Positions 1,394 to 64,000 are shown, numbered from the stretch's first letter. The stretch: DNA of 64,000 nt from a virus (IMGVR_UViG_3300044796_000394), one strand, 5' to 3'. Numbers and translations: made by a program. Notes: generated from the sequence alone by a model not told the origin.

Positions 1394-2044
1394 TTATGCT
1401 TTTTTGCGAATATCTTTTTTGATGCTCTGCATTTGATTATCCAAGGCCAAGCCGAAGTAAGAAACAAAAGCCTTACTGTTAACATTGTGATTTTCAACGA
1501 TTGGCTTGACTGGTTCAAAATTTTCACGTTTGCTTGAAACCTTATTCATCGGCTGTTGGAAAGCAGCATAAGTGCTAGGATCGGCAACGGCATCAAAAGT
1601 GATTAATTTGTAACTTTCGCCAATAACCAAAACGCCTTCATTGTTCGTTTGGCCATTACCAACACCACGACTACTAATACCAATACGACCACCGGCTTCC
1701 ATGATGCTCTTTAAGATCATGCCGCTTGGCGTACGAAGAATTTCGCCTTCACCCATCAACACATTACCTTCCCACCATAAGCGGGTAACAACGTGACTTG
1801 TATTGGCCAAGTGAATAATCGAATCCGTAGGGTGATCGAGTTCGCCGTAAAGCCCCTTGGAGCTAACTGTTTCTGCTAATTTTTCCACGTTCGATGCTAG
1901 AACGTCATACGGGTACATCCGCTTATTCTTATTGGTGGCATTGGCCTCTTGAAACTTACCCTGAAACTTGGTTCGTCCGTTAGTGGATTCACTCAAAGCA
2001 AAGGAAGTCCATCCGCAGCAGTCAATAAGGAGATGATCAGTCAT
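1394..2044 (-). CDS. Prohead maturation protease (T4 gp21-like)
   Basis: Motifs NKNKRMYP, GELDHP, IGISSRGVG and TFDAVADPS. Confidence 0.95.
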   Translation of the reverse strand: MTDHLLIDCCGWTSFALSESTNGRTKFQGKFQEANATNKNKRMYPYDVLASNVEKLAETVSSKGLYGELDHPTDSIIHLANTSHVVTRLWWEGNVLMGEGEILRTPSGMILKSIMEAGGRIGISSRGVGNGQTNNEGVLVIGESYKLITFDAVADPSTYAAFQQPMNKVSSKRENFEPVKPIVENHNVNSKAFVSYFGLALDNQMQSIKKDIRKKA

Positions 2045-7003: not shown

Positions 7004-7661
7004 TATCGTAGTCGTTATCAACAGCCCATTGTGCTAAATCATGAAGGGCTTTGATGTTTCTCTGAATTCTTTCCTTGTCCACACCGCCGAAATGTACATC
7101 GGCCTTCCCCGGCTTTTTATCAACCTTGGCAGGCTCAACAGCCTTATCAATCTGGAAATCATTAATGGATTGAATCTTCCACAACAATTCTCTTGATTGA
7201 AGTGACTGTACCCCTCGCATACCCATTAATTGCAACACCAAATCAGCCATGTCGTTGCTCATGTTAACTTCCGGTGCCCGATTCTGACTATCCGGAATTT
7301 CTACATCAATACGATAAACGACATCGGGATGGAACGTTCCGCTTTGTTCCTTGCGGAATTTCCCATGTTTAACACCCATTTCCCCAATGGCATAAACAGC
7401 ACCATTGACAATTTTAGCCCACTCTGTTTCAGGCACGCCAGTAGGGTACAGGTTCATAGTACCTTTTTTCAAATGAGTATTCAAACCATCAATGGTAAAA
7501 ATACCTTCGGGATTGGTAGCTTTTTGACTCAAAGGTGCGTGTTGGTGAAGCCAAGCACGCACCTTATAGCCAAGGTCGGCGATGTCCTTAACATCGCTTG
7601 CCTCATATCCCTCTGGTTCAAACGTTACGCTTTCCGTTAACCACTTTTTGAAATTATTCAC
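6987..7661 (-). CDS. Hypothetical protein, putative internal head protein
   Basis: 224 aa; N-terminus xNNFKKWLTES; overlaps the portal stop. Confidence 0.6.
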   Translation of the reverse strand: MNNFKKWLTESVTFEPEGYEASDVKDIADLGYKVRAWLHQHAPLSQKATNPEGIFTIDGLNTHLKKGTMNLYPTGVPETEWAKIVNGAVYAIGEMGVKHGKFRKEQSGTFHPDVVYRIDVEIPDSQNRAPEVNMSNDMADLVLQLMGMRGVQSLQSRELLWKIQSINDFQIDKAVEPAKVDKKPGKADVHFGGVDKERIQRNIKALHDLAQWAVDNDYDTIAMS

Positions 7662-10194
7662 CTTCTACCTCGCTGGCATCAATTTCTTCGTCGTCAATTC
7701 CTTGCGACAAATCGTAAATTTCCAAATCGTACATCTTCAACTCATCGTCAGTTGGATCAGGCAATTCTACTACTTCAGGCTTCTCTGGTTGACCGTACGT
7801 GTCTTGTGCTTCGGCTCCAGGCTGTTGATCGCCCCCCGCATCCATTTCGCCACCTGTAGGCGGTTGATCTGGAGGCGGTTGCTGCCCGCTCATATCATTT
7901 GGTACTGGCCCGCCTGCTTGTGATCCCAATTCATTGCCCGGTGCTTGCGGCATAGCCACACCCAACAATTGAGGATTTTGACTCATTACTTGCAGCTTCA
8001 GTTCTTGCAGCTTCTGAATCATTGAACGAGCGACTTTTTCCTTCGCCTTTTCCAACGGTTCGTGCATAACATCCGTCAACAAGTCCAAGTCAGAATAAAC
8101 CATCGTACCCTTCAAGGTGGAAAGACGGTTAACACGGGCATCCTTGATTTCGTTTTCTGAGATTTCACGGTAGTGAGATGGAGCAGTCATCTTGATCTGC
8201 AAATCATCAAACAAATCACTTGGATAGCCACGCAATTGTAAGTGTCGAATAGCAACCTGAACCAGTCCACTCGCAACGTTTCTTTGTAGCCTCTCAACCA
8301 ATCTCGCAAACTTAACATCAACACTGGATAACGTCACTTTGGTGATTGAAGGATCGTCTTGTGCCATGTAGTTTCTTGGGAAACACATTGAGATAAACAA
8401 CTTGTTTCTGAAGTACAAGGCATCGTCAATTTCGCCTAAGTTTTGGGCACCGGGCAATGTTTCAACCCGTGTATTAGAATTCGGACGCAATGGAATCCAG
8501 AAGTCTTCATCGGCTGTCGGTGGCGTATTTCTTTCATCAACTGGCCCTGCACCCGACTGACCACCCTTAGAAGTAAATACCTTTTTCTTACGGAATTGAT
8601 CTTTCAATCGTTCCATGAAAGCTTCAGTTTTGAACGATGATAATTGACCAACATCGATGTAAAAGACCCGTCTTTCCGGCGCACGTGAAAGACGATAGAT
8701 TAACATACTATCTTCCATCAACTTCAATTGGTGCGCTGGGCCACGTGCTGCTTCAATCAAACTCACTCCATAAGGGAAAAACGTCTTGCGATTTCCGCCA
8801 ATACTAAAGTGTACGATAGATTGAGGTTGGAATCTGATAGCCGTTGCCTGCATCAATTCCGCTTCTGTAGCCTTCGTTACGTCAACCTTAGCTAAACTCT
8901 GATAATCAGGCCCATCTTTGGCTTGTTGGAATTCAATAGTCTTGCCTTTGATCGTATCAATACGATAAATACTTTCAGGTGGAAGTACTTGTACTTTCAA
9001 AATACCTAACTTGGGTTCATCGGAATCAATGACGAGTTCAATGAAGTGATCGCCATAAAGGAACAAGTCCCGGCACCAGCTCCAAATATTTTCGTCAAGG
9101 TTAATCATCGTCGGATGAAAAAAGAGGAATTCCAATTCTTCTTTGATGTCCGGATTTTTGCAGATGATATCGAGCATGTGCCCGTTCTCACCGATCTGGC
9201 AATTATGAAATACGCCGATGTCAGTACAGAAATTTTCGTGCTGATCTACGGAAAGATCGTAAACGTCCTCTTCGGCACCTTCCCAAGTAGCCAATACGGT
9301 TACGTAATCGGGAATCTCGCCTAAATGCTGGCATTCACGATAGCAAAAACCTTCGTATCTCAATCTTTCGGAAAGGGTATCCCAATCCTTACCGAAGAAC
9401 TCAGCGACTTGTTTGGTTTTCAATCCACCGGCAATGGATCTAACAATCTTGTATAGATTTTCTTTTTGTGTTTCGCCGGTACGCCATTCTTCAATGAAAT
9501 CACGTTCCGTCATCCAGCCTTTGTTATGGGTGAAAATACGTGGGAATTGTTTGCGTTTGGCACAAGCAAAAGTTTTTTCTGGCCGTTTGCGGTAGAAAGG
9601 CATCATACGATCACCCTTCTTTAACTGCCCCGCTTCAATCCATTCACCATTTCTCAACAAAACCCTATGGTCAGCAGTACAGCGGAATTGCGCACCGTCT
9701 GAAACGGTTACAACAACAGTTTTAGACTTCTTGACAATGCGTGGATGATGTGCCCAACCGAGTGTGTAATCTTGCTTGCCAAAATCGTAACAATATACGA
9801 GGAACTTTTCCCCTGTCATCTTGCGGGCAGCGAGGTCTTTAATTTCAATAAAGCCGAATGGAGTAGCAACTTTGGTATGTCCAGCAACGCAGGCTTCGTC
9901 AGCGAAAATCGTAATAGCATTTTCAATTTCGGGTACTGTTCTTAATCTTTCGTATTCTTTATATCGGCTTTGACGGTTTGTTACGCTGGATAAATCGATG
10001 AAGTCATTGCTGTCACGAAGCCTTACAACACCCCTACTACCACCAAAATATTCACCACTTTGACGAATGTCTTGAATGGCGTCTGGAACGGTAACGCCCG
10101 CACCTTCAATATCGTGAGTTACTTCACGCCGACGGATGGGATCAAGCTCACCTTGAAACTGCCATACCTTGTACAAATCACTCCAAAACGGCAT
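7654..10194 (-). CDS. Portal protein (T4 gp20-like) containing an intein
   Basis: Motifs PYGVSLIEAAR, LMEDSMLIYRLSRAPERRVFYIDVG, EDFWIP and ETLPGAQNLGEIDD. Confidence 0.95.
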   Translation of the reverse strand: MPFWSDLYKVWQFQGELDPIRRREVTHDIEGAGVTVPDAIQDIRQSGEYFGGSRGVVRLRDSNDFIDLSSVTNRQSRYKEYERLRTVPEIENAITIFADEACVAGHTKVATPFGFIEIKDLAARKMTGEKFLVYCYDFGKQDYTLGWAHHPRIVKKSKTVVVTVSDGAQFRCTADHRVLLRNGEWIEAGQLKKGDRMMPFYRKRPEKTFACAKRKQFPRIFTHNKGWMTERDFIEEWRTGETQKENLYKIVRSIAGGLKTKQVAEFFGKDWDTLSERLRYEGFCYRECQHLGEIPDYVTVLATWEGAEEDVYDLSVDQHENFCTDIGVFHNCQIGENGHMLDIICKNPDIKEELEFLFFHPTMINLDENIWSWCRDLFLYGDHFIELVIDSDEPKLGILKVQVLPPESIYRIDTIKGKTIEFQQAKDGPDYQSLAKVDVTKATEAELMQATAIRFQPQSIVHFSIGGNRKTFFPYGVSLIEAARGPAHQLKLMEDSMLIYRLSRAPERRVFYIDVGQLSSFKTEAFMERLKDQFRKKKVFTSKGGQSGAGPVDERNTPPTADEDFWIPLRPNSNTRVETLPGAQNLGEIDDALYFRNKLFISMCFPRNYMAQDDPSITKVTLSSVDVKFARLVERLQRNVASGLVQVAIRHLQLRGYPSDLFDDLQIKMTAPSHYREISENEIKDARVNRLSTLKGTMVYSDLDLLTDVMHEPLEKAKEKVARSMIQKLQELKLQVMSQNPQLLGVAMPQAPGNELGSQAGGPVPNDMSGQQPPPDQPPTGGEMDAGGDQQPGAEAQDTYGQPEKPEVVELPDPTDDELKMYDLEIYDLSQGIDDEEIDASEVEGE
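9202..9891 (-). mobile_element. Intein (230 aa) in the portal gene
   Basis: Starts CVAGHTKV, has block B CTADHRVL and block F VYDLSVDQHENF, ends FHN followed by Cys+1. Confidence 0.92.
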
Positions 10195-14629: not shown

Positions 14630-14671
14630 TGTTTAATGTTCACAACAGTTATACCAATACTATGTTGAGGT

Positions 14672-16694: not shown

Positions 16695-16758
16695 TCTTGA
16701 CAAAATGCCGTGTTCATGATATGCTCTGTGAGTGTTTTTACACCATTGGAGAAAAATC

Positions 16759-16899
16759 ATGGCTTCGTTCGGTGACGGTATCAAGTTCGATGCTGGCAAG
16801 GCATCCAATTTGGGATGTTTAGGCTGTTCCGTTATCATCATCTTGGGAATGATGGTGGTCGGACTTACGGGAACTGTCATCTACCTGTTGTGTCGTTAA
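16759..16899 (+). CDS. Small membrane protein (46 aa; not in the ORF track)
   Basis: GGAG RBS; MASFGDGIKFDAGKASNLGCLGCSVIIILGMMVVGLTGTVIYLLCR; TTGACA about 60 nt upstream. Confidence 0.55.
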   Translation: MASFGDGIKFDAGKASNLGCLGCSVIIILGMMVVGLTGTVIYLLCR

Positions 16900-16900
16900 C

Positions 16901-16929
16901 AAAAAAAGCCCGGCAATGCCGGGCTTTTT
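16901..16929. terminator. Bidirectional intrinsic terminator
   Basis: Same GCCCGGC-AAT-GCCGGGC hairpin as at 3114-3142, with A and T tracts. Confidence 0.88.
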
Positions 16930-16932
16930 CGT

Positions 16933-18975
16933 TTAATGTCCAAATCCAAATTTCTTTGGAATCCATTTATTGGTTTTCTTATCATAAGCCCATATGTGTA
17001 ATGGTGGGGCTTTTTCAGTAGGCATCGGTGCCCGCTTAACTTTCTTCGGCTTTTCAGCAGCAGGTTCAGGGTCATCACCGAACAAATTCGTACTCTTAAG
17101 ACTTGCAGGACGCAAAGGCTCTTCCTTGGGTTTAGGTTCGGCCTTCGGCTCTTTGATTTTCTTTGGAGCCGGTGGGGTATGCGCTGCCGTCTGCGTCATA
17201 ACATCAATTGCCTTCTTTGGCACATCCTTCTTGATTTCAGTTGCACCAGAATTACTCTTACGCTTCTCAATAATGCTTTGAGCCATGTGCTGTAGTGCGA
17301 TAGGCATACCCTTGCTTCTGATCTTATCTGGGTTCATTTCACCCAATTTGATAAGCATCTTGCCCAACATTTCAGCCGCCGCATCGAGCTTGGTATCACT
17401 GTACCCAAACTCTTTATCAGCACGCAAATTGGTAACAAGCCAAGACTTGTAAGTTTTCACCATTTCCGGCGTAACGTGAACGTCCGCTGCTTCCGCTTCG
17501 GTTGGAATCTTGAAATCCCGTAACTCTTTTTCAGCATCATCACGATTATCGTCATCACGTTTGTGATCCCGACCAGCCATCGCCGACATATCTGTATCAT
17601 TATTTTTAGAATGTTTGAGATAAGTGCTGATTTCTTGTGTTGCTACCTGTCGTGCTTTGTTAATCCGAAAATCTTGATCGGCATATTCGGCACTACCAAC
17701 AACAGCATCACTGCTTAAGGAGTCCATAGCCGCTTGTTCCAATTGATCCAAGCTATCGCCCAATGGCTGATTGGTTTGGCCTTGCATAAATCTCAAAGCG
17801 ATTTTGGCACCGGCGTTGGCATCGTGTTGAAGGATCGACATCCAATCCATCGAAGGGTCCATATTCTTCTTGAAACGAGAACTCGCCTTATTGAGTGATG
17901 GTACATTTTCAGGATCGCTAAGGTGTTTGTTTTGACCATCAATCCACTTCTGGATTAAATCAAACTTATGACCAGCAACCTTCTTCGCCGTATCCACAGT
18001 ACTACCAGCCTTGAACCCCGGATGATAAGTACCACGTTCCATCCAACGCATCGCTGAGACACGGGGTAATGGGTTGTCGTAGAAGTTAACACCCTTGTCT
18101 TTCAAATCTTCAAGTCTTTGTTTCAATGCTTCAATGTGAACGGGAATCGGAATTGTTCGGCCTCCACCAACCTCCCAATCCATCACTTCACCAGCCTTAT
18201 GACCCTTAGAAGGCATCATAGCCTTGGGATCATTAACCAAGTGACCGCTATACCGTCTCATGAAAGCAGGAACCAAAACCCTCTTCAATTCATCAGGCGA
18301 TAATTGGCTTTTGAAAGCTTGAATAAATTCGTGATCGTTCTCATCGAGATAAATTGGTTCTTTGACCTTAACACCGCCACGGTGATCTTCGGCATTACTT
18401 GATCCAAAACCGCCAACGTGAGTTACGAATGGTTTCCGTCCACCAGATGTAGCTGTAAGGTTCGGCTTGTAATCCTTCAAAGCATAAGCCTGTGAAAGTT
18501 CAGGAACCTTATCACTGTCGTGGAAATAGGAATTGCCCAACCACTCTTTGGCAGTACGAGTGGAAGAATCACGAGTCAAGTTAATCTTGGCAGGATCATA
18601 TCCCAAATCTTCAAGCTTCTGTAAAAGTTGCTTAGAGTGCGTATCAACCTCTAAATCAAAGCGGATTGGAATAAAATCTTTTTTGCCTTTGGTTTTTTCA
18701 AATTGCGTTTGAATGGAAATGTTTCTTTTGGATGGATCTGGTTTTTGAAGAACCTTCTCACTGTACCGATAAGCAACGGCTTTCGCCAATACCACGCCCA
18801 ATAAACGCCGCATTTCTTCGCCGCTATATTTGTCACCGTAATTTTGTGTTACGTAATCGGCAATCGGTTTTAGGTAAGCAGTATCCGCATCATCGAAGTA
18901 AATTTCCTTGCCGAATGGAACGGCGGGCATTTCGACGAGCAGTCTGTGCTCAAAATATTTTTTGAAATTCATCAT
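16933..18975 (-). CDS. Large hypothetical protein, putative internal head protein
   Basis: N-terminus MMNFKKYFEHRLLVE; repeated IYFDDAD/IYLDEND domain. Confidence 0.6.
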   Translation of the reverse strand: MMNFKKYFEHRLLVEMPAVPFGKEIYFDDADTAYLKPIADYVTQNYGDKYSGEEMRRLLGVVLAKAVAYRYSEKVLQKPDPSKRNISIQTQFEKTKGKKDFIPIRFDLEVDTHSKQLLQKLEDLGYDPAKINLTRDSSTRTAKEWLGNSYFHDSDKVPELSQAYALKDYKPNLTATSGGRKPFVTHVGGFGSSNAEDHRGGVKVKEPIYLDENDHEFIQAFKSQLSPDELKRVLVPAFMRRYSGHLVNDPKAMMPSKGHKAGEVMDWEVGGGRTIPIPVHIEALKQRLEDLKDKGVNFYDNPLPRVSAMRWMERGTYHPGFKAGSTVDTAKKVAGHKFDLIQKWIDGQNKHLSDPENVPSLNKASSRFKKNMDPSMDWMSILQHDANAGAKIALRFMQGQTNQPLGDSLDQLEQAAMDSLSSDAVVGSAEYADQDFRINKARQVATQEISTYLKHSKNNDTDMSAMAGRDHKRDDDNRDDAEKELRDFKIPTEAEAADVHVTPEMVKTYKSWLVTNLRADKEFGYSDTKLDAAAEMLGKMLIKLGEMNPDKIRSKGMPIALQHMAQSIIEKRKSNSGATEIKKDVPKKAIDVMTQTAAHTPPAPKKIKEPKAEPKPKEEPLRPASLKSTNLFGDDPEPAAEKPKKVKRAPMPTEKAPPLHIWAYDKKTNKWIPKKFGFGH

Positions 18976-19002
18976 GGCCTCTCTCATTATATATTATCTA
19001 TC

Positions 19003-19920
19003 ATGGATTTCATGGGTTCTAAAAAAAGACTTGTTGCCGAAATCGAAAAGTACGTCATCGGAACAACTGTTTTGGATGCTTGTTGCGGTTCCGGCGCTGT
19101 ATCGCAACATCTCGCCAAGTTGGGCAAACACGTAATTGCCTCTGATTTATTACATTTTCCCGGTACCATTGTCAGAGGCTCCATAGGGTTAACCGACTCA
19201 CAAAAAAAATCTGCCGACCAATTTATTGAGTACGCAAATACCCTCAAAGGTAAACAGGGATTTTTCTACAACAACTACAGCAACGAAAGAACTTACTTCC
19301 TTCCCCACAATGCAGCCTTCTTAGATCATATCCGTGAAGAAATCGAAAACGTATCCGACTCCAAACTTAAGGATTATCTATTGTATTGCGGCTTAGAAGC
19401 AATGAGTCGTGTACAAAATGTTTGCGGCATGCAAGCGTGCTTCCTCAAACACTTCAAACGAACAGCGAAATTAACTATATTTTTACGGGAAGAACCGATC
19501 TATTCAGGACAAGCCGAGTTCATCAGACAAAACGCTATACAAACCGTACAAGAAAGAAAATTTGATACTGTTTACATAGACCCGCCGTATACCGAAAGAC
19601 AATACGGAAAGACCTATCATCTGTACGAAACTTTTATACGGAATGATAACCCTGAAATCTTCGGCAAAACAGGACAACGAAAAACTCTTGAAGAACCGAG
19701 TGAATTCTGTCAGATTTACAAATACGAACAAGCCTTTGTTAACTTCGTTGCCAATTGTTCGGGACGGGTGATTATCAGCTATAACTCCGAAGGAAACATG
19801 AAGAAAGAAAGGTTCGTAGAGTTATTTTCGCCCAAAGTGATTGAAATGCCGCTTCCAAAGTACAATTCTCACGGTAAGTCAGGGATAGTTTCGGAATATC
19901 TTTTCGTGATTGATAAATAA
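19003..19920 (+). CDS. DNA adenine methyltransferase (D12/alpha class, FokI/NlaIII-like)
   Basis: Motifs FMGSKKRL, DACCGSGAVS, YIDPPY and ISYNSEG. Confidence 0.92.
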   Translation: MDFMGSKKRLVAEIEKYVIGTTVLDACCGSGAVSQHLAKLGKHVIASDLLHFPGTIVRGSIGLTDSQKKSADQFIEYANTLKGKQGFFYNNYSNERTYFLPHNAAFLDHIREEIENVSDSKLKDYLLYCGLEAMSRVQNVCGMQACFLKHFKRTAKLTIFLREEPIYSGQAEFIRQNAIQTVQERKFDTVYIDPPYTERQYGKTYHLYETFIRNDNPEIFGKTGQRKTLEEPSEFCQIYKYEQAFVNFVANCSGRVIISYNSEGNMKKERFVELFSPKVIEMPLPKYNSHGKSGIVSEYLFVIDK

Positions 19921-19923
19921 GAT

Positions 19924-20814
19924 ATGCCCAACTGCTTCGCAAATACCCTGCTCATTAGCCGCCCCACCCAAAACGGTCGTGGAACGTGCGGCCCATCATG
20001 TGGTGTCAACGGTGGAGGTGATTGTAACACCCCCGGCCTCAGCCCACGCCGCAAACGAGATGCCGTTATCGATGAACTTAAGGACTACGTCTTGCTTATG
20101 CTCGGCGGGCCTGTCATCGGCATAGAACTGGACGATCAGCAACTTGATATGGCCGTCAAGCAAACGCTCAAGATTATGGAATACTTTGCCCCACGGGAAT
20201 ATTTCACCTATTATACATTCAGTACAACCCCCGGCCAAAGTGTTTATGAGATGCCTCCCGATGTCGGATACGTCCGCCACGTGGCCTACCGTGAAACTAC
20301 CGAATACGGCTTTCAAGCAGAAGATTTAGGCGGTTCTATCCCCCTTGAGTACTTCTATCCGGGTGGTTCGGGAGGCGGCAGTGGTGGTCTTGGCGGATTC
20401 ATGAACCCAATTCAACCATTATGGGGCAGCGCCGGTGAATGGGTGTTGTACAAAAACTACGAAAGAATGTATACTCGTTTGAGTAGCTCGCTTGGCGGTT
20501 GGGAATGGGTTAACGGATATAGACACATTAAACTCTATCCAATTCCTTTCCGTCCAACCCGTGTTATTGTTCACTACATGCAGAAATGTAAGGATTGGGA
20601 AGACATCACTCTGGCGATGAATGAGGGTGCGTTGGCCCATGCGAAGATGATGCTTGGATTAATTCGTCGTAAATATACCAATCCGCCCGGCCCCGGTGGT
20701 GGCATTCAATTGGACGGCGCTCAAATGTACCAAGAAGGCAAAGAAGAATACGAAAAATGGAAAGAAGAATTGATTTACAAATGGGGTGACATCCTCCCCA
20801 TTTCTCTTGGATAG
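19924..20814 (+). CDS. Neck protein (T4 gp13-like)
   Basis: LKDYVLLMLGGPVIGIELDDQQLD and C-terminal KY..PGPGGGIQLDG motifs. Confidence 0.8.
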   Translation: MPNCFANTLLISRPTQNGRGTCGPSCGVNGGGDCNTPGLSPRRKRDAVIDELKDYVLLMLGGPVIGIELDDQQLDMAVKQTLKIMEYFAPREYFTYYTFSTTPGQSVYEMPPDVGYVRHVAYRETTEYGFQAEDLGGSIPLEYFYPGGSGGGSGGLGGFMNPIQPLWGSAGEWVLYKNYERMYTRLSSSLGGWEWVNGYRHIKLYPIPFRPTRVIVHYMQKCKDWEDITLAMNEGALAHAKMMLGLIRRKYTNPPGPGGGIQLDGAQMYQEGKEEYEKWKEELIYKWGDILPISLG

Positions 20815-51916: not shown

Positions 51917-52018
51917 GAATTTTTCCTTTAACTTATTTATCCCGAAGCCAAAAATCTCTACAGTAGGTTAGTAAAACTTATGAAATCTAATTTTCTATTT
52001 AGCTATCTAAATATCACC

Positions 52019-52273
52019 ATGCTAAAATTTAACGAATATCACCAAATCCAAGAGTCTGCCGTAAACGAAATTCTCGTTAATCCTGCACTCAAACTCAAAA
52101 TTCGCAAGAATCAATTTGGTGAGTTTGAAGTACGTGTTTTGAGACTCGTTGGCAAAGTATGGCGTTCCAACGAAAAGGAAACTGCCTTTATGAGCGATCT
52201 TCAAGATGCCATTGGTACGATGCAAGATATGGCACGGAGGATGACCGTTTCCTCCGCACCAAATCAAGCTTAA
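52019..52273 (+). CDS. Hypothetical protein with a capsid-targeting-like N-terminus
   Basis: MLKFNEYHQIQES; TAAATA box 5 nt upstream. Confidence 0.6.
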   Translation: MLKFNEYHQIQESAVNEILVNPALKLKIRKNQFGEFEVRVLRLVGKVWRSNEKETAFMSDLQDAIGTMQDMARRMTVSSAPNQA

Positions 52274-54544
52274 CTAGAACGAAACGGCACAAGCGCCTCC
52301 TGCACAAGCTGCCTCTCCAATCAAGTTAGTTTCATCACTATCTTCGGTGAGTGAGGCGTAATCAACGTGCTTCCATTCACGCTTTAAGTCACACCACATT
52401 TTCCAATTGCTGACTTCTTTCAAGCAATAAATCATTCTACCTTTGTCGCCACTAAAGTAGCGGTCGGCAAATTGTTCTGCCCGACGTACCCAATCTATTT
52501 TCAGATCGTATTTGTTTAACCAATTAGGATTGTCCGGCTTTGCAACTTTATTAATACCACGCAAAGTATCACAAGCAACCCACAAGCTATCAAAAGCGTG
52601 AAGGCCATCCACAATTAACCCTGATGCGAAGATAGAGGCATCTCCATACTTGGCAACCAATTCTTCCGGCGTACTCACAGCACAGAACGGAGCTTGCGGA
52701 TAATCCAAATCACCAGTTGAAGGCAACAAACTGATACCTGCGAAGAATTCACGATTGTCATAGATGTAATTTTCTACTTCATCCCATTCTTCAGGTTTAA
52801 CTGAAACGGTATTAGAAACATTGTGACGAAGCCAAGGCTGCGCACATCGTTCAAGTCTAGTACCGGCACTCACCCAATTCTGTTGTGTCAATTTGACAAA
52901 CTTCAAAAGGTTAATAGCGCTGATATGCTCTTTCGTCAAAGCCTTATCATCAACTTCAATACAGAACGTCAAGATGGAATCATGACCATTCTTTGACCAA
53001 ACACTCTTTTCACAAGCCAACGGATTGACATCAGCAAAGAATTTCAATGGTGCTTCAAGGTTGTTACCCTGTACTCGTCGGAAATATCTCTTGCTGTGGT
53101 GAGGGTGGACGCCCGATGACGTTCCCAACATACAACTTGTCGTACCAGCAGGCTTGATACAAGTGCATCTGGCAGCAGGATTGATCCCCAACTCTACCGC
53201 AAATTCACCGTTAACTTCCTTGATAATTTCAGCCATCTTACGCTGAATATCAGGACTGAACATCACTCTGGAATTTTCCATCATTCCCGTAATACTGACG
53301 CCCAACAACGCTTCTCTAGCCGTAATCCGCTCACTGACTTCACCCAGATAAGGGAAAGACGTATAGCTGGCTTGGAGCGTACCGATGATAGCACCTGCAC
53401 GAGCAGCTACCTCAAAATCTTCTTCATTCTCAATCATCTTGCCGTTGATTTCGGTCAAGTTACAGAACTGCCAACCACTGTTTCCAAATTCATCATAAGC
53501 GTACAGGGCGATTTCAACGCAAGGGTTGAAACCACATTCTTCGCTGTCCGACCAGATGAATCCGGGTTCGCCGTATTCCTTAACCCAAGTCATCAGGTTT
53601 TTGAATTGCTCTTTGGTGGTCTTATTACGAATTAACAAGGCACTATTGTTGCTTCTTGCTCGTTGTGGGTTTTCATAGAACCAGTTACCGGTCTTGGCCT
53701 TGGCCATTTCCATATCGTCTGGACTGAATAAACAGATCGTAGCCGAACGACGAACACCACCGCTGAGAACGGCATCGGATGCGTACATCACAATGTCGTA
53801 AGCATCAATAGGTCTTAGAGCAACCGTTTCCGGGTTAATTGTAATTCTAGCGTGTAGTTCATTCTTGACAACTACTTCCGGTGTATTCAATTCGCTATCG
53901 CACTTTATGTCAAACTTAAGACGATTATCAAGCAGCTTGCGAATTAACTCTAATGATTTTTCCAGCGGTTCAGGGCCGGGGCATTTACCTGAGCCTGATG
54001 ACAGTGGGGTACCTTTAGGGCTGATGTTGGCGTAATCGAATTCAACCGTGTAGCCGAAGTAATCGGAGTCTGGATTCGTGTAGGAATCGATGAGGACGCC
54101 TAGAGAGTCGCCCCAACCTGCGATAGAATCGGGAATGAGGTATGTCATTCCACCATTGGCAGGTTTATGCAATACTGGCAACTTAGCAACGTGGTGCTTC
54201 TGTACAGAGAAACCTACGCCACTTCCGCAGAGGAGGAGGTAGAAGGCTTCTTGGAAAAAGCGTGGTCGGTCGCAATAAGAGAAACAGCAGTTGTAAATCC
54301 GAGCATTAACCTTTTCAATTGGCTTGCCACCGAATTGCAATGCTCGCTGAGAACCGAGTACTCTTTTTTCCAGTACACGATCAAAGGCCCAATTGATTTT
54401 TTCTTCGGCGTGTGAATGCTTTCTGATGTGCATTTGTCTGACACGATCTACCGCTTCTGGCCATGTTTCACGACGTTTTTTATCTTCTAGGTATCTTGCG
54501 TATTTGCTTGTGTATGTGTAATCTTGTAACGCTTCTACTGACAT
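52274..54544 (-). CDS. nrdJ: Ribonucleotide reductase, class II-like (adenosylcobalamin-dependent type)
   Basis: KYARY...RRETW, YNC, GGVRRSA, NPCVEI, CNLTEI, IKPAGTTS and C-terminal CAGGAC; no beta-subunit gene seen in the window. Confidence 0.85.
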   Translation of the reverse strand: MSVEALQDYTYTSKYARYLEDKKRRETWPEAVDRVRQMHIRKHSHAEEKINWAFDRVLEKRVLGSQRALQFGGKPIEKVNARIYNCCFSYCDRPRFFQEAFYLLLCGSGVGFSVQKHHVAKLPVLHKPANGGMTYLIPDSIAGWGDSLGVLIDSYTNPDSDYFGYTVEFDYANISPKGTPLSSGSGKCPGPEPLEKSLELIRKLLDNRLKFDIKCDSELNTPEVVVKNELHARITINPETVALRPIDAYDIVMYASDAVLSGGVRRSATICLFSPDDMEMAKAKTGNWFYENPQRARSNNSALLIRNKTTKEQFKNLMTWVKEYGEPGFIWSDSEECGFNPCVEIALYAYDEFGNSGWQFCNLTEINGKMIENEEDFEVAARAGAIIGTLQASYTSFPYLGEVSERITAREALLGVSITGMMENSRVMFSPDIQRKMAEIIKEVNGEFAVELGINPAARCTCIKPAGTTSCMLGTSSGVHPHHSKRYFRRVQGNNLEAPLKFFADVNPLACEKSVWSKNGHDSILTFCIEVDDKALTKEHISAINLLKFVKLTQQNWVSAGTRLERCAQPWLRHNVSNTVSVKPEEWDEVENYIYDNREFFAGISLLPSTGDLDYPQAPFCAVSTPEELVAKYGDASIFASGLIVDGLHAFDSLWVACDTLRGINKVAKPDNPNWLNKYDLKIDWVRRAEQFADRYFSGDKGRMIYCLKEVSNWKMWCDLKREWKHVDYASLTEDSDETNLIGEAACAGGACAVSF

Positions 54545-54598: not shown

Positions 54599-54778
54599 TT
54601 ATTCTTTAAATTGTTGAGCAAAAGAGTTCAAATCAATGAAATGTTCCTTTAAAATGCCCGGAAATGATTCTTCTGCTTGTTTTAGAATTTCGGCATCAGA
54701 CGGAGTAGTAAGACTTTCATGATCGGCAGCTTGGAACCAATACAAAATACGATTTGCATCTTCTTTAGTTAAATTCAT
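54599..54778 (-). CDS. Small hypothetical protein (59 aa; not in the ORF track)
   Basis: MNLTKEDANRILYWFQAADHES...; ATGA overlap with the last array gene; lacks the array tag. Confidence 0.55.
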   Translation of the reverse strand: MNLTKEDANRILYWFQAADHESLTTPSDAEILKQAEESFPGILKEHFIDLNSFAQQFKE

Positions 54779-54996
54779 TCTGACTCTTCTTTCAATATTT
54801 CACATTTGATTTTTGGTTTTTTTATTCTAATAAGCGGTGTTGTTAACAATATCGAATCCATTGACGGATAGGCTCTTCGTATCAGAGGCATATGCAAAGT
54901 CGGATACGTTAAAGTCGGATACGTTCTACGATTTTCCGGAATCTCTTTGAGTGGAATTTCCTTAAATCCTTTTAATTTTTCAATACGTTCTGGCAT
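54775..54996 (-). CDS. Tagged mini-gene 6 with a major-capsid (Gol-region)-like peptide
   Basis: MPLIRRAYPSM; tag IKKPKIKCEILKEE. Confidence 0.8.
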   Translation of the reverse strand: MPERIEKLKGFKEIPLKEIPENRRTYPTLTYPTLHMPLIRRAYPSMDSILLTTPLIRIKKPKIKCEILKEESE

Positions 54997-55319
54997 TATT
55001 CTTCCCCCAATATTTCACATTGGATTTTAGACTTTTTCAACACGTAAGGCTTAGTACACTCATAGGCATAACTGTATTCATCCTGCCATCGTTCATTGCC
55101 GTTAAAAGTTGTACCAGAACCAACACCACGGGAACTGATACCAACACGAGGCATGGGAACGGCCAAAATAGATGGATTTTGAGCCATGACTTCAAGTTTC
55201 AATTTCTGCAATTGCTTAATTTTCAATTCTGCTATTATTTTTTCTTGTTCTGTCTTTGTGAGCTCTTTGAATTCTTTCAAAAAATTCTCTACAATTCTAA
55301 TTTCACTTTCAGTTGGCAT
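54996..55319 (-). CDS. Tagged mini-gene 5 with portal-like and prohead-protease-like peptides
   Basis: IKQLQKLKLEVMAQNPSILAVPMP then RVGISSRGVGSG; tag LKKSKIQCEILGEE. Confidence 0.85.
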   Translation of the reverse strand: MPTESEIRIVENFLKEFKELTKTEQEKIIAELKIKQLQKLKLEVMAQNPSILAVPMPRVGISSRGVGSGTTFNGNERWQDEYSYAYECTKPYVLKKSKIQCEILGEE

Positions 55320-55630
55320 TATTCAATCTCCTTTAATATTTCGCATTTTATTTTTGATTTTTTGATACGAATGTAACCATAGTTAGTTTGCATGATAGGA
55401 TCTGCTGAATGTGAGACAGTTAATGGCTCGCCCCACGAATTTTGAAGAATAATCTCCCCACATGGATTTGCGCCAACATAATTAACAGAATGACTCCAAA
55501 CATTACGATCTGCAAACTGAGACGGAATATTAACTAGCGGTATACCCGATGACATACCATATTCAACTTCATCCCATTGTGATGACAATGATGATGAAAT
55601 TGATGTTGGCCACGTTGCATAAACTGGCAT
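55319..55630 (-). CDS. Tagged mini-gene 4 with tail-tube-like and RNR-like peptides
   Basis: WPTSI...WDEVEY and GANPCGEIIL; tag IKKSKIKCEILKEIE; start at the TAATG overlap. Confidence 0.8.
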   Translation of the reverse strand: MPVYATWPTSISSSLSSQWDEVEYGMSSGIPLVNIPSQFADRNVWSHSVNYVGANPCGEIILQNSWGEPLTVSHSADPIMQTNYGYIRIKKSKIKCEILKEIE

Positions 55631-55833
55631 TATTCTTCCCCTAATATTTCGCAAGTAATTTTTGGTTTTGGAAAATATGATCCAAAAACTTGTTGGTGGT
55701 AATCTGCTGGCAGTGCGTAATGATGCCTATAATTTTTGTTGAAAATTTGTGATTGTGTGATTCCACAATGTCTGTATAAAGCAGCCATCACCTCTCGCTT
55801 CAAAGCCTCCAAAGTTTCTTCTTCAGTTTTCAT
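55630..55833 (-). CDS. Tagged mini-gene 3
   Basis: EETLEALKREVMAAL; tag PKPKITCEILGEE. Confidence 0.8.
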   Translation of the reverse strand: MKTEEETLEALKREVMAALYRHCGITQSQIFNKNYRHHYALPADYHQQVFGSYFPKPKITCEILGEE

Positions 55834-56029
55834 CTGGCAGCTCCTTTAATATTTCGCATATGATCTTGGATTTCTTTTTCGATTTCTCCGAGCTCCAGCT
55901 ATGATCAAACGGATCGTGCCAAACGTAATCGTCAGAGTAAGAGTTGGCGTACGAATACGAATATAATGATGTTGATGCCGCTGGCACATCAACCGTGATG
56001 TTCATATCTTCAATAACAACTTGTGGCAT
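55823..56029 (-). CDS. Tagged mini-gene 2
   Basis: PQVVIEDMNITVDVPAA; tag KKKSKIICEILKE. Confidence 0.8.
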   Translation of the reverse strand: MPQVVIEDMNITVDVPAASTSLYSYSYANSYSDDYVWHDPFDHSWSSEKSKKKSKIICEILKELPDEN

Positions 56030-56253
56030 TACTCTTCCCCCAATATTTCACAGGTGATTTTAGACTTGATTTTAGGCTTAACAATTTGTTTGCCGTATCT
56101 TGTCAAGGTAGGTGTGGTGGCGATACCGTGGTAATACAATGGATTGACACGGGTACGGTAACTTTCACGGGCTGCTGTTTCGCTCGTATAATAATCATAA
56201 TACGAAGACAAGTTGATTGGCGTATTGCCTGTTTTTACTGCTTCTATTTTCAT
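56029..56253 (-). CDS. Tagged mini-gene 1 with sheath-like and capsid-C-terminus-like peptides
   Basis: RESYRTRVNPL and LTRYGKQIVKP; tag IKSKITCEILGEE; ATGA overlap with the SbcC-like stop. Confidence 0.8.
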   Translation of the reverse strand: MKIEAVKTGNTPINLSSYYDYYTSETAARESYRTRVNPLYYHGIATTPTLTRYGKQIVKPKIKSKITCEILGEE

Positions 56254-58196
56254 TTGATCCTACTTATTCCGTTTTCTTTAATGACTGTGATAGTATCGTA
56301 GTTACTTAACATTTCCAACAATTCAGGATCGTGTGTAGTCACCAAGACTTGACGATCTCTTGCCAATTCGCAAATCATGGCAAAAACGGATTGAATGCCC
56401 GGTCTGTCCAGATTTGTACCAACCTCATCCAGACTGACAAGACTCGGACAGGAACCAGCCGTTAAAGCGGTTACGTTTGCGAATCCCTGCGAAATACCCA
56501 AGCTGATGCGTTGATGTTCACCGCCAGACATTGCGCTGTGTACGAAAGGATCACCGTCTGGAGGATTCCTCTCAATCTTCTCAACCAATTCCGTATTGAA
56601 CTTAAGAGTGATCTTATTATCAATCAAGAATTGGAGCCAGAAGTTAATCTTGGCATTGAGCAATGGAACGATTTCATCAATGATAAACGACCGAATGCCC
56701 TTGTCGCCGAAACCCATAATCCAAAAATCGTAATATGGGATTTGAGAAGTATGCTCATCAACTTCCTTACGCTGCGACATCATCTTTTGACGATTGAAAT
56801 CTAATTCTGCTTCCAAATTGGCCAAGATCGGCCCATAAGGATCGCCTGCCTCGTACTCAGTTACTTTCTGCTCTAATTGTTCTGACAGTGTATCAATCTT
56901 TTGTTCGATAATCAATGCCGCTGCATTAGCATTCTTCTGAAAAGCCGCTGTCAACTGTGAACGCTTGGATTCCAACTCACGAATATTCCTCACGACACCC
57001 AATTCACGAATTTTGGCATTTTCAATCGCTTCAACAATAGCCGCAATCGCCCTATCGTACTTGCCCATCTTGACAGCCGCCGCATCCCAATCGGTCTGAT
57101 TCTTCTTGATCTCTTCCCTGATTTCAGCAATCTGATCCTCGTTATGGGAAATCACGTGCTGGAAATTTTCCTTGTTCACAACACCGAAACAAACCTTACA
57201 TTTAGTACCGTTACTCGTCGTCAAAGAATGGGTTTGTTGCTTCAATTCCTCAATGTCTTTTTCACTCTTCTTGATTGCGTAAGCGAGTTCTTTAGTTCCT
57301 AGCATCAACGTTTGACGATCTTCACGTACTTGACTGTGTTTCTTTTCCGCTTCTCGAATCGCTTCCTGTATCGCTTGACGAGATTTCGTTTTTTCTTGAA
57401 TCGACTCTTCAACCAAAGAAATGTTCTCGTAGCTACTCACCGAATCTGGCTGAATTTGGGCCATCTCCTCTTTTGCCCTAACAATCTGTAGCTTCAATCG
57501 CTCAATGCTGTTCATCTGGCCCATTCGCCAATCTTCACGCTGCTTTGAGATGTTGATAATTTGCCGTTCAGCAGTTTGAACATTAACAGAACTTTTTTCA
57601 TAAACTGCTTTGATGACTTCCAGCTTTTGAAGAATTACAGTTTTCCGCTTCTTCGCCGACTCACAAAACTTATTGTACTTGTCTAGAGACAACAAACTCT
57701 CTGCGATCTGCCTTTTTTCAGAAGGGTTGCACATCAAGAAAGGCTTAGCGTTATGCTGGCCGAAACAAACAATGTTAATGAAGGCATTGTAGTTCAGTTT
57801 GATGATCTTGTTGATTTCATCTTGGGTTGCAGGAATACCACCGAGCTTCTGTAAATCGCCATCCTTGTACAGAGTCAAATCGTTCTTTTCTCTTCTGCGA
57901 TTGATCACATAAGCGTGACCGTCCAATTCAAAGCCAATTTCAACTTCCAACTTGGACTTCATCTTAATGTTGATGACTTCGTATTGGTTGAGGCTCTTGA
58001 TCAGCTTGCCATAAAAGGCGTAAACAATGGCTTCTATGATGGTACTCTTACCAGCACCATTACTCGCATCTTTGCCAATATCAAGATTTTCACCTTTGAT
58101 ACAAACGATGTTGCCGTACTTTGTGAAATCGATGAAAAGAGGATTCTCGTTTCCGAACGATAAAAAGTTTGATGCTTTGATGTAATTGATTTTCAT
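56250..58196 (-). CDS. SMC/Rad50-family recombination nuclease ATPase subunit (gp46/SbcC-like)
   Basis: NFLSFG, NGAGKST, CKVC zinc hook, MSGGE, LDE and TH motifs. Confidence 0.95.
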   Translation of the reverse strand: MKINYIKASNFLSFGNENPLFIDFTKYGNIVCIKGENLDIGKDASNGAGKSTIIEAIVYAFYGKLIKSLNQYEVINIKMKSKLEVEIGFELDGHAYVINRRREKNDLTLYKDGDLQKLGGIPATQDEINKIIKLNYNAFINIVCFGQHNAKPFLMCNPSEKRQIAESLLSLDKYNKFCESAKKRKTVILQKLEVIKAVYEKSSVNVQTAERQIINISKQREDWRMGQMNSIERLKLQIVRAKEEMAQIQPDSVSSYENISLVEESIQEKTKSRQAIQEAIREAEKKHSQVREDRQTLMLGTKELAYAIKKSEKDIEELKQQTHSLTTSNGTKCKVCFGVVNKENFQHVISHNEDQIAEIREEIKKNQTDWDAAAVKMGKYDRAIAAIVEAIENAKIRELGVVRNIRELESKRSQLTAAFQKNANAAALIIEQKIDTLSEQLEQKVTEYEAGDPYGPILANLEAELDFNRQKMMSQRKEVDEHTSQIPYYDFWIMGFGDKGIRSFIIDEIVPLLNAKINFWLQFLIDNKITLKFNTELVEKIERNPPDGDPFVHSAMSGGEHQRISLGISQGFANVTALTAGSCPSLVSLDEVGTNLDRPGIQSVFAMICELARDRQVLVTTHDPELLEMLSNYDTITVIKENGISRIK

Positions 58197-59233
58197 TCGG
58201 CGCAAATCTCCTGTGCTATTTTGAGCAAGTCATTCGTGTCTAAATTTTGTGTATTGCTGGCAGAAATGAACCTTTGGAAAAGGTCGCCATCTTGCAAATT
58301 GAATTTGAGCATTCGATCTTCTTTGGATTCTTCTTTCGCAATGATTTCCTTCGGTAGAAATGTTACTTGTGAATCCGGTGATGTAGAACGTACCTTGCTC
58401 TGTAAATCTACTACGTCGGCAGAATTGAGGTCATCGACGTAAACCCTCACGAAATTGCGGCCCAAATCTTCGGGCAAATCCACAGCATCCAAAATCAAAT
58501 GCTTCGGTGAAAAATCATTAACTATCGCAATCGTTTCCAATGTTTCAGTATCCATCGCCAAGATGTGTTTTTCCTGAAAGGCTTCGTTAAATGTTAACTG
58601 TAATGGCGAACCGATGTACTCTACCTTGTCGGTCAATTTTTGGGCACCGTGATAGTGTCCCAAGAAAACTCTGTTCCATCCGTCAAAAAGATCACGGCTA
58701 ACAGGTACCATATCGTTTTCATTCTCAACCGATACTTCTGCTTTTGTTCTATGATTAAAGTTAAGTACGGCACCATCTACGGCAATATGACCAATCAATA
58801 CGTTAGACTTCTTCGCTTTCCAATTCTTTAGAGTATTAATTGGATTATGAGTGAAGGGCAAGAAGTCAATTGGGAAATCGCCGACCATCACGGTTGATGG
58901 TTCCGATACGACAGTAACGTTTTTAAGGGCAGCGAACGGATGTACACTAGAGATTTCTTTACTTTCGTAAAACCACAGATCGTGGTTGCCGAGTAGAAGA
59001 TAAAGATTAATGTCGGGATTGGCATTCAGAACATTGAATGTTTTGTTGTAAGCCAAAACTTGAATTTTTTGACGGTCTTGAAAGAGGTCGCCGCCAAAAA
59101 CGATATTTTTGATCTTCCGCTTGCGGGCCGTATCAAAAACCCACTGGAGGACTTTTAGACAATCCTCCAAGCGATCTTGACTACCTTTATGTGCTGCGAT
59201 GTGAACGTCTGAGAAAAATAAAATTTCGGGCAT
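58193..59233 (-). CDS. Mre11-family nuclease subunit (gp47/SbcD-like)
   Basis: SDVH, GGDLF, GNHD, GH, LGHYH and YIGSP motifs. Confidence 0.95.
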   Translation of the reverse strand: MPEILFFSDVHIAAHKGSQDRLEDCLKVLQWVFDTARKRKIKNIVFGGDLFQDRQKIQVLAYNKTFNVLNANPDINLYLLLGNHDLWFYESKEISSVHPFAALKNVTVVSEPSTVMVGDFPIDFLPFTHNPINTLKNWKAKKSNVLIGHIAVDGAVLNFNHRTKAEVSVENENDMVPVSRDLFDGWNRVFLGHYHGAQKLTDKVEYIGSPLQLTFNEAFQEKHILAMDTETLETIAIVNDFSPKHLILDAVDLPEDLGRNFVRVYVDDLNSADVVDLQSKVRSTSPDSQVTFLPKEIIAKEESKEDRMLKFNLQDGDLFQRFISASNTQNLDTNDLLKIAQEICAE

Positions 59234-59299: not shown

Positions 59300-59695
59300 T
59301 CACTTCAACAAACTCTTGGGCTTTTGCTCAACTTTGGCAACTTTATTTAACTTTGGATTGCGTTTTGAAACACTAATCTCATTGAAAAATTCGTTATACT
59401 TTTGATCGTCAGCGACACGTCTTAACACTTTCCAAACGTCGGCAATGGAAATGTTTTGGATAGGTACAGGAGTTGCCGGTGGTGGTGGTGCGCCCATTCC
59501 GCCCATATCACCGCCCATAGGAGGCCCGCCACCCATTCCGCCCATCATAGGATCAGCACCGGGAGCACCTCCCATCGCATCAGGGGCACCACCCATTTCA
59601 CCACCTGGAGCAGGCGGCATACCACCAGCCGGGGGCGGTGGACCAAGAGGAGCTTCGGTTAAGCGGGTACAGGCTTCATAAAAACTTTGCTTCAT
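59300..59695 (-). CDS. Hypothetical Gly/Pro/Met-rich protein with a capsid-targeting-like N-terminus
   Basis: MKQSFYEACTRLTEA; TAAATA box 7 nt upstream. Confidence 0.65.
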   Translation of the reverse strand: MKQSFYEACTRLTEAPLGPPPPAGGMPPAPGGEMGGAPDAMGGAPGADPMMGGMGGGPPMGGDMGGMGAPPPPATPVPIQNISIADVWKVLRRVADDQKYNEFFNEISVSKRNPKLNKVAKVEQKPKSLLK

Positions 59696-59807
59696 ATGAG
59701 ATTATTTAGTACTATTTTCTTGACTTATGAGAAAAATTATGAGATTATATTATCAACGCTGGTTGAGCCGGAACCAGTAACAACGTAGATTCTCAGGGGA
59801 GAAGACG

Positions 59808-60137
59808 ATGAAAAGACCACTTCAAGAACCCAAATCTCAGCGATACAGAGCAATTGCCGTCTTTGCCAGTGGCAAAGAAGGGTTGATAACGCTCGGTAGC
59901 AACTACGCCTTTGTACAGGAAAACTACGACGAAGCGTTTCACAAACTGTACGGCGTGGACAGCGAAGGGAACCAAACAGCGAGCATTAAGGAGGTTCATG
60001 TCCAGCAATGGCAAGGGCAATCCGATGTTGGCCGCTGGAATACCCTCAAGGTTCTTCCGGTGCCACAACCCGTCGTCATCGGCATCGGCGTACGCAAAAA
60101 GCCGGTTGAAACCGCTGCGGAACCGACCATCGGTTAA
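59808..60137 (+). CDS. Hypothetical protein
   Basis: GGGGAG RBS; 109 aa. Confidence 0.6.
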   Translation: MKRPLQEPKSQRYRAIAVFASGKEGLITLGSNYAFVQENYDEAFHKLYGVDSEGNQTASIKEVHVQQWQGQSDVGRWNTLKVLPVPQPVVIGIGVRKKPVETAAEPTIG

Positions 60138-62647: not shown

Positions 62648-64000
62648 ATGAGACATTTAAAATTCCGAGAATTTCAAGAAGCTAAAGAAGCCAAAGAAAA
62701 GGGTTTGGCAACAGAACCCGCTGGTAAGCCGAACAATGCCCCGGATGGCGGCAAGGGTCCAGCCGTAGGCAAAGGCTTCGGAGATCAAAATGGTCTTGAA
62801 CCAAATAAAGAAAAAGACGGTGGCAAGGGTGCCAATGTCGGCAAGGGTTTGGGCGATGAAAAAGGTGTTATCACCAAAGATCAAGCCATTCCCAAAGAAG
62901 GCAAGACTGTAGAACTCATTAAGATTGATTCTGGCTTCATTGGCAAGGATTACAAGGGTTTTTTGGCTACCAAGTATGGGAACAAGGCCGAAGATACCAC
63001 CCAACCGTACGCTGACAAAGCCGACGATACCGGAGTTTATCTTTCCTCATCTTCCGAAGACCCAAAAAAAGGTTTAGCATTTGATGCGATGCCCGGAATG
63101 ACGGCAACCAATTCCGGTGGTGAAGAACCTAAGTTCAATTTCACGAAGAAAAACATTGCCAAATTAACGTCCGAAGAATTCCTCAAAGACACTCAAAAAT
63201 TGTCGCCTACTGATTTTGTTAATTATTACGCCGAGAATACTGAAGAAGAACCTTTACCTACGATTACCGACTTGAATGGTAATCAATTTACGCCAGATCC
63301 AAATCAAACAATTGAATATCTTGCTCACTTGGCAGCTAAAAACCCAAGATTGATGACTCGTTTTGTACGAGAAATCAAGAGACACGAAGGTGGCTTCAAC
63401 AAATTATTCAGTGAAAGCGCAGATCATCCAGAATTCGTTACGAATATGGTTGAGAGTATGTCAAAGCCTGAAACCGGCAAAAAGTTCTGTCATCGTATTG
63501 CCCGTGGTATGAATGATACCTACATGACGGCACTTGATAACTATGTTATGGAAAACAGGTTAAACGAAGAAGTACAGCCGAAAAAAGACCTATCTGTCGA
63601 AGACGGTGGGCCAGTCGGAAATCCTCCCGAAAATCCTTCGGGTATGTCTTCCCCACAAATGAAACAACCGCAAGGCGGGGCATTTGGTGGTGGTGGACCC
63701 GCACAACCCAACCTTCAACCTCCGGGCGGGGCAATGGGCGGCGGAGGACCGGCTGGCCCATCAGCTCCCCCACCGGGCGGCGCAATGGGCGGCGGCGGTG
63801 CAATGATGGGCGGACAAGCTACAGGGCCAGCAGCAGGCCCGGCAGGAATGGGCGGAATCGGCGGCGGGCCACCTTCATTGCCTCCTACCGGATTTGATGC
63901 CGGTGGTATGCAGCCCCCTCAACCAACAGCCAAGCTTAAAGGTGAAACGGCTCACGGTAACATGATTGAAAGCATGGGTGGTTTCCCTCACATGCACACC
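62648..64000 (+). CDS. Large hypothetical protein, 5' part (not in the ORF track; runs off the window); putative head protein
   Basis: MRHLKFREFQEAKEAK..., repeated DGGKG.xVGKG.GD and a Gly/Pro/Met-rich tract; no in-frame stop noticed. Confidence 0.7.
   Translation, partial: MRHLKFREFQEAKEAKEKGLATEPAGKPNNAPDGGKGPAVGKGFGDQNGLEPNKEKDGGKGANVGKGLGDEKGVITKDQAIPKEGKTVELIKIDSGFIGKDYKGFLATKYGNKAEDTTQPYADKADDTGVYLSSSSEDPKKGLAFDAMPGMTATNSGGEEPKFNFTKKNIAKLTSEEFLKDTQKLSPTDFVNYYAENTEEEPLPTITDLNGNQFTPDPNQTIEYLAHLAAKNPRLMTRFVREIKRHEGGFNKLFSESADHPEFVTNMVESMSKPETGKKFCHRIARGMNDTYMTALDNYVMENRLNEEVQPKKDLSVEDGGPVGNPPENPSGMSSPQMKQPQGGAFGGGGPAQPNLQPPGGAMGGGGPAGPSAPPPGGAMGGGGAMMGGQATGPAAGPAGMGGIGGGPPSLPPTGFDAGGMQPPQPTAKLKGETAHGNMIESMGGFPHMHT

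Follow-up and report, generated by a model that had tools for sequence, protein, structure and literature searches.

A short linear stretch of capsid sequence can act on a host factor by itself, as the T4 gp23 Gol region does in the system that also comprises EF-Tu and the Lit protease of e14. By one account, Gol function is defined by a gp23 peptide of 29 residues, and the Gol region, the most conserved part of gp23, binds EF-Tu (PMC3014915). Gol sits within the capsid protein and triggers defence. In contrast, the mini-gene at our locus that resembles the Gol-aligned segment (ORF F) is a separate gene, its capsid-like piece is about half as long as the Gol peptide and fused to a tag, and it is flanked by genes with other excerpts. 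A second likeness is to the ligands of Avs/STAND sensors: the abstract of a recent study names both capsid and portal as sensed classes of protein and does not name RNR (ribonucleotide reductase), and the sensors bind folded cores via extended interfaces (10.64898/2026.01.04.697583). In the same text, one 130-residue fragment sufficed to activate, not block, an Avs sensor, and the word ‘decoy’ occurs in its mass-spectrometry sense only. We rejected the peptides described below as ligands of this kind, which are complete folded cores, because the excerpts are 10–44 residues long, show no capsid or portal family hit and, in the case of ORF E, gave an Atlas model with a pLDDT of 0.44. CBASS, according to another report, senses protease activity and not a motif (10.64898/2026.03.04.709575).

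Anti-defence proteins that work as decoys or mimics, phage Ocr among them, resemble our locus in that a phage-made look-alike could titrate a defence, but Ocr is a single folded DNA mimic with neither a tag nor an array of protein excerpts (PMC12409349). The SPO1 Clp adaptor, a phage protein that redirects the Clp protease, is a precedent for a handle-type mechanism, yet it is one protein with no excerpt-plus-tag repertoire (PMC6873191). An ssrA-type or Clp degron would have fixed free C-terminal residues and a tmRNA that encodes it; the tag at our locus is followed by 3–9 variable residues, and the genome has a ClpP-like gene. The internal proteins of T4, which are packaged late proteins, carry an N-terminal capsid-targeting sequence that is cleaved. 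Our tag is likewise a short terminal peptide common to unrelated small proteins; identity with that sequence was rejected, since the shared peptide here is C-terminal. The T4 sequence is not fused to core-protein excerpts.

We found no description of tagged excerpt genes in the full-text literature, a search that most subscription papers lay outside, and no described anti-defence or assembly system in the literature searched combines a constant handle with variable excerpts of the phage’s own proteins. Two papers use ‘decoy’ for other things (PMC12409349, PMC11702601). New at this locus are its own tag, the tandem six-gene form in a replication operon and a chimera drawn from two sources, portal and protease. 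The feature is real and unusual, and the original prediction partly over-read it at the level of individual motifs.

Layout of the array and its shared tag

The window, which is the whole 64,000-nt stretch of DNA analysed here, belongs to a 174.7-kb virus record that is about 35% complete; the protein index lists the array ORFs on a 614-kb contig too. Genes for a gp23-type capsid, a T4-type portal, an S77 prohead protease, a sheath and two tube proteins are present, and the source is a huge T4-like phage. Its nearest relative in the annotated collection is LR756511.1, a 595-kb uncultured phage with a capsid identity of 68%. The portal gene contains an intein domain (PF14890).

Six tandem ORFs of 67–107 aa had been predicted between the SbcC-like and RNR genes, coupled by overlaps and unrelated to one another outside a C-terminal tag, and all of this is borne out on the minus strand (Table 1). 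The junctions are ATGA between sbcC and A, TAATG at A/B, C/D, D/E and E/F, and an 11-nt overlap at B/C, and the cargo regions do not align with one another. An untagged seventh ORF, G, joined to F by ATGA, had been missed. ORF A starts without a gap after the SbcC-like gene, ORF G ends 54 nt before the RNR gene, and four of the ORFs start with ATGCCA.

Table 1. Positions of the array, its excerpts and related features (window coordinates unless a C1 position is given).
Feature	Position	Strand	Evidence or remark
SbcC-like gene, upstream flank	56250..58205	-	phrog_77, E 2.4e-78; overlaps ORF A
ORF A, 74 aa, tagged	56029..56253	-	read from sequence
ORF B, 68 aa, tagged	55823..56029	-	source protein not detected
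ORF C, 67 aa, tagged	55630..55833	-	read from sequence
ORF D, 103 aa, tagged, ATG start	55319..55630	-	read from sequence
ORF E, 107 aa, tagged; combines a portal piece with a prohead-protease piece (chimera)	54996..55319	-	shuffle tests
Portal excerpt, E residues 12–55 (44 residues), clade-conserved C-terminal helical region	55155..55286	-	49 bits
Prohead-protease GISSRGVG motif, E residues 58–71	55107..55148	-	32 bits, 0/2000
ORF F, 73 aa, tagged	54775..54996	-	read from sequence
ORF G, 59 aa, without tag; closes the insertion	54599..54778	-	no homologue found
RNR gene, downstream flank	52274..54544	-	phrog_367, E 3.8e-99
Tag copies	A 56041..56067; others 55847-55873, 55642-55668, 55334-55360, 55008-55034, 54793-54819	-	K[SP]KIxCEIL
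Portal gene, family source of E excerpt	7654..10194	-	PF07230, E 6.5e-73
Prohead protease gene, family source of second E excerpt	1394..2044	-	PF03420, E 9.7e-25
ORF X, 66 aa, seventh tagged ORF, outside window	C1:130579-130779 (L083:2080-2280)	-	no excerpt detected
G013 tagged-gene examples	C1:351097-351617, 453477-453812, 517817-518784		

No such array followed sbcC in any of the 78 related SbcC loci listed (of 80), and in most of these the RNR gene begins 40–215 nt after sbcC; on this evidence the array is an insertion, about 1.65 kb long, that is specific to the lineage. Because an RNA-library run from a second study yielded identical contigs spanning 55290–55790 and 55791–56850, the stretch 55290–56850 is not an assembly artefact. 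In RNA run X2, window positions 1–20000 were evenly covered at a depth of about 5–14 and a 4-kb contig ran across opposed genes. This pattern resembles DNA carried in the library, and the coverage is not used here as expression evidence. A low-coverage bin at 59518–59851 in the RNA run proves nothing. Early expression may be suggested by the position of the array in a replication operon; a promoter scan returned 23 sites, none informative, against 16.3 ± 3.8 in shuffles, and did not support it.

The core of the predicted tag, K[SP]KIxCEIL, is present in 6/6 array ORFs. The trailing [GK]E[E], which had been counted with it, may not belong to the peptide, since the purine-rich stretch that would bind ribosomes for the following gene lies at the same place. 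When the tails of 204 small ORFs were clustered de novo, a single cluster emerged, of size 7. Its seventh member (ORF X) lies outside the window, between two genes that were labelled by eye as aminoacyl-tRNA-synthetase-like and phosphatase-like. Over the seven copies, 7/9 tag residues are invariant. Variable nucleotide sites at codon positions 1/2/3 number 3/1/8, that is, 8/9 third positions vary as against 1/9 second positions, and leucine is written TTG, TTA or CTC. This third-position variation suggests that the tag is constrained at the protein level, with the caveat that it was delimited at that level and the pattern is partly circular; an integron-like cassette array, in which the repeat would be conserved as DNA at all codon positions alike, was rejected on this concentration of changes at third positions. 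Duplication or conversion of DNA occurs as well, since A and E share a 44-nt stretch across the tag and junction that is 91% identical. The tag itself matched none of 172 clade families. A complex prediction for ORF G with the tag region scored 0.01 and its controls were not folded, so it is evidence neither way.

Searches for homologues returned little beyond this phage. Pfam, PHROGs and NCBIfam searches with A–G and X gave best E-values of 0.004–0.2, all short of the cut-off, and tblastn of A–G against annotated phages gave matches at E 3–10 or none. Word-indexed protein searches retained one of three candidates with E and one of 66 with the tag alignment, each time the phage’s own protein only. 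A full profile search of 1.84 billion representatives produced seven hits, namely six of the phage’s own tagged ORFs and one unrelated protein, a leucine-rich-repeat protein that scored via eight internal repeats. ORFs G, D and X were singletons in a cluster look-up, the Atlas searches gave no usable hit, and no relevant entry came up when the PDB was searched with the sequence of D. Tag DNA patterns had 2 and 0 matches in viral contigs, neither of the two a tagged small ORF. In metagenomes, the 118 loci covered of about 140 each had a single match, and no small ORF ending in the tag plus [GK]E was among them. The tag profile found 0/50 and 0/5 on related records, most of them incomplete, and a tag-like pattern run over the small ORFs of loci L001–L164 recovered ORF X alone. 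No orthologous array was found in these protein, viral-contig, metagenome and related-record searches, and by sequence searching this tag appears to be known from a single genome.

The variable parts of the tagged genes

The variable parts had been predicted to carry look-alikes of essential phage proteins. For ORF E this was upheld: its portal and prohead-protease pieces were each equalled in 0/300 shuffles against the phage’s 188 own proteins and in 0/2000 against 17 family profiles, which were built from fetched loci. Against the 188 proteins, E matched portal residues 721–761 (score 87) and protease residues 120–135 (score 61), and E alone beat the shuffles. The portal piece also gave 0/300 against 172 clade families. 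It lies nearer the clade consensus than the phage’s own portal does; eight relatives’ portals outscored the latter, which ranked 9 of 40. Identity between the portal piece and the phage’s portal gene was 19/23/12 of 31 at the three codon positions, and shared degenerate residues used different codons in 10/14 cases. A simple neutral model predicts about 17.7 identical third positions, more than the 12/31 observed (p 0.03). The protease piece shares 11/14 residues with the phage’s own protease.

The capsid motif in F held up in part. Residues 34–46 of F resemble a capsid segment whose aligned counterpart in T4 gp23 lies in the Gol region. The phage’s own capsid residues 64–76 align with residues 29–41 of the T4 gp23 chain, which are 94–106 in the full-length protein, and we take the limits of Gol in full-length gp23 to be 94–122. 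The position in gp23 is therefore that of Gol, but the 29-residue region with its 20-residue core is not reproduced, and we rejected F as a full Gol peptide: the match spans 13–16 residues, with 6/10 identical in its centre. The match was reached in 17/2000 shuffles across the 17 families and in 0/600 in a gapped regional test; the comparisons with the phage’s own proteins (85/300) and with 172 clade families (245/300) did not single it out.

Other motif assignments did not survive when taken singly, as A, B, C, D and X each fail against all families, whether own proteins, 17 families or 172 families. Residues 50–59 of A resemble the C-terminal TRYGK strand of gp23-type capsids (24/2000 for the same family, weak alone; 195/2000 for any of 17), and residues 5–34 of C weakly resemble the capsid backbone-helix region (34/2000 same family, 519/2000 any of 17). 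The NPCGEI of D resembles the RNR active-site loop, at 655/2000 across 17 families; RNR was the only PHROG hit of D (E 0.21 and 0.15), and one of its two tblastn hits was an annotated phage RNR at E 7. We regard the RNR match in D as suggestive. The tail-tube and sheath assignments for B were no better than chance (1874/2000 and 911/2000) after the tube and sheath profiles had been rebuilt with 21 and 10 sequences, and both were rejected. No excerpt was detectable in B or X, and the claim of a mimic in every ORF is not supported.

Taken together, the weaker ORFs pointed to the capsid. Capsid p-values were 0.014 for A, 0.021 for C, 0.026 for D, 0.001 for F and 0.94 for B, so that four of five array ORFs (A, C, D, F; not B) reached p ≤ 0.03, as against 4/74 untagged small ORFs (p 2e-4). 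In a combined-p ranking, which was designed after those matches had been seen, capsid headed the list of 17 families, both when A, B, C, D, F and X were combined (p 8e-5) and for A–D alone (0.0027, or about 0.05 after correction for 17). Among 172 families, an RNR family came first (0.0011) and capsid second (0.0081), and both miss Bonferroni. Regional capsid tests (32 run) gave 1/600 for the backbone helix in C, 14/600 for the C-terminal strand in A and 29/600 for residues 315–375 in D. F, C and A map onto three different capsid regions, two of which (backbone helix and C-terminus) are also fused to tags in relatives. In a top-three-segment test, the fit of A–D to virion families was not superior to their fit to control families (0.068 versus 0.049). 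The predicted architecture of constant tag plus excerpt thus stood for E and F, for A, C and D collectively and for relatives with other tags, and not for B and X. Judged from these comparisons, excerpts as cargo seem clear in E, moderate in F, collective in A, C and D, and absent from B and X.

Comparable genes in related huge phages

We fetched eight related records and clustered the tails of their small proteins de novo. In G013 (533 kb, capsid 75% identical), 15 small proteins end in [YWH]R[ST]IDD. Pieces of capsid, sheath or head protein were found in 6/15 of these tagged ORFs and in 3/488 untagged small ORFs (p 2e-8); the others carry non-virion pieces or nothing recognisable, and two match the conserved non-virion families f27 and f29. 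The capsid pieces show codon identities to the capsid gene such as 41/47/22 of 51. A targeted pattern found two counterpart genes with the same tag in G008, and G033 has a capsid piece carrying a G013-type tag. In G013 and G008, an LTRYG[KR] capsid strand lies shortly before the tag, the same placement as in ORF A, and codon periodicity is strong in these genes. A different tag, WxxEGF, ends a capsid excerpt in G051 (L426:1501-1740), and six small genes of G041 carry a tag of that type (C1:65804-66705, 78258, 211860, 217907, 403651), of which 0/6 qualified in the excerpt test. There was no de novo tag cluster in G001, G002, G003, G047, G007 or G008; five of the fetched records are without a tag cluster and mostly partial.

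The phage studied here also has small ORFs with one genome-wide C-terminal tag and cargo excerpts. The array, as far as these comparisons indicate, belongs to a recurring huge-phage design whose tags differ across the clade. At a 30-bit mark, 1/7 tagged ORFs here carry an excerpt as against 6/15 in G013; excerpts are fainter than in the relatives examined, which makes this locus less valuable as a first test example, and G013 is the better test case. LR756511.1 has an untagged 64-aa ORF ending in an LTRYG[KR]-type capsid strand. Untagged capsid-fragment genes also lie in its public unannotated record, at L415:1426-1932, L416:1444-1638 and L418:1441-1812.

Possible functions of the array

Our tentative preference, at rather less than an even chance, is that the mini-genes serve as bait for host anti-phage sensors and that the tag is their common handle; this function is predicted. 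The excerpts would bind host sensors of conserved head proteins, and the tag would route the bound sensor to sequestration or proteolysis. A fragment without a handle could set a sensor off instead of blocking it, hence the need for a handle in this model. That look-alikes which vary all carry the same handle suggests many ligands and one common reader. The phage’s own ClpP-like protein (PF00574; C1:139025-139609, L429) is one candidate endpoint, unlinked to the tag; a ClpX-like gene is present in G013. We favour bait because the excerpted proteins belong to sensed classes and one excerpt matches the Gol region, where a short peptide suffices. Translation of the genes, sensor binding and a single tag reader are presumed in this proposal, and the codon pattern and intact frames are consistent with selection on the cargo. 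Plain titration by look-alikes of 10–16 residues is doubtful for known sensors, since these read folds or protease activity. Several observations count against bait: B and X have no excerpt, the top-three-segment fit of A–D is no better than that of controls, RNR and capsid miss Bonferroni, the tagged genes of G013 are partly non-virion or unrecognisable, and those of G041 gave 0/6. Should the bait reading be right, every peptide would point to a surface that the hosts of huge phages detect, the tag would be a portable targeting signal, and what bacterial sensors see could be tested directly with genes of 70–107 aa.

A broader and unlikely extension is that huge phages keep an evolvable ‘antigen library’, in which the most conserved stretches of portal, protease, capsid and replication proteins, set on a lineage-specific handle, would act in a bait-and-degrade counter-defence that catches receptors early and passes them to a single disposal route. 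If true, the excerpts map the surfaces read by bacterial immunity, including undiscovered linear-peptide sensors.

We consider it equally unlikely that the products are dominant-negative pieces that bind their cognate proteins, either poisoning the assembly of co-infecting relatives or delaying the phage’s own head assembly, with the tag recruiting a remover or marking the peptides for timed destruction. The excerpts do derive from oligomeric proteins, the clade-conserved portal excerpt is matched better by the portals of eight relatives than by that of its own phage, and for the capsid excerpts of G013 and G008 the capsid of the same genome comes only 7th to 26th among 60. However, these margins between self and relative are small (1 to 11 score points for the capsid excerpts), the same motifs occur in the phage’s own proteins, so that self-poisoning would have to be avoided, and the protease and RNR motifs, which we take to be active-site elements, are poor candidates for assembly interfaces.

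The tag might instead be an address label for the virion, a phage compartment or a chaperone, with excerpts engaging folding or translation factors as Gol binds EF-Tu, which we judge improbable. The match of F to the Gol-aligned region agrees with this, as do the tags that relatives also place on proteins without excerpts, but F holds only about 13 of the 29 Gol residues and the array lies in a replication operon, not among late genes. L-x-E is the cleavage consensus of the T4 prohead protease. The tag end contains L-x-E, although its E residues overlap the ribosome-binding stretch of the next gene.

More improbable still is a by-product origin, in which recombination captured the fragments beside a repeated DNA element and the genes are now drifting. 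The 44-nt stretch shared by A and E and the four ATGCCA starts indicate that duplication of the unit took place at the DNA level, a single genome was found to have the array, and most excerpts are faint; against drift stand the third-position bias in the tag and the portal piece, six intact coupled frames and the codon periodicity of the G013 and G008 genes. Least probable, by a little, are ordinary tandem-duplicated, fast-evolving small proteins with a structural C-terminal strand, among which only E would be a true fusion and the rest chance: A, B, C, D and X fail individually across all families and F fails 2/4 tests, but capsid is enriched across A, C, D and F, in G013 and G008 the capsid strand of A recurs immediately ahead of another tag, and the cargo regions show no mutual alignment.

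Some minor features of these genomes were also recorded. ARAGORN, run on the about-35%-complete genome, called one tRNA and no tmRNA; in G007 it made a tmRNA call (L385:1789-2150), and an SmpB-like family (labelled by eye) is among the clade families. Several proteins of the window begin with an MKxFxEW/F-like sequence (5549–7661, 16933–18987, 51980–52273, 62648–64000), N-termini that we take to resemble the T4 capsid-targeting sequence. Upstream of sbcD, a 131-aa low-complexity ORF rich in Pro, Gly and Met occupies 59300–59695. Finally, an untagged 127-aa ORF on the minus strand (C1:78077-78460; L430:78-461) has no Pfam hit but gives a 33-bit match to the tail-tube profile over its N-terminal 32 residues; it is possibly a cut-down tube paralogue.
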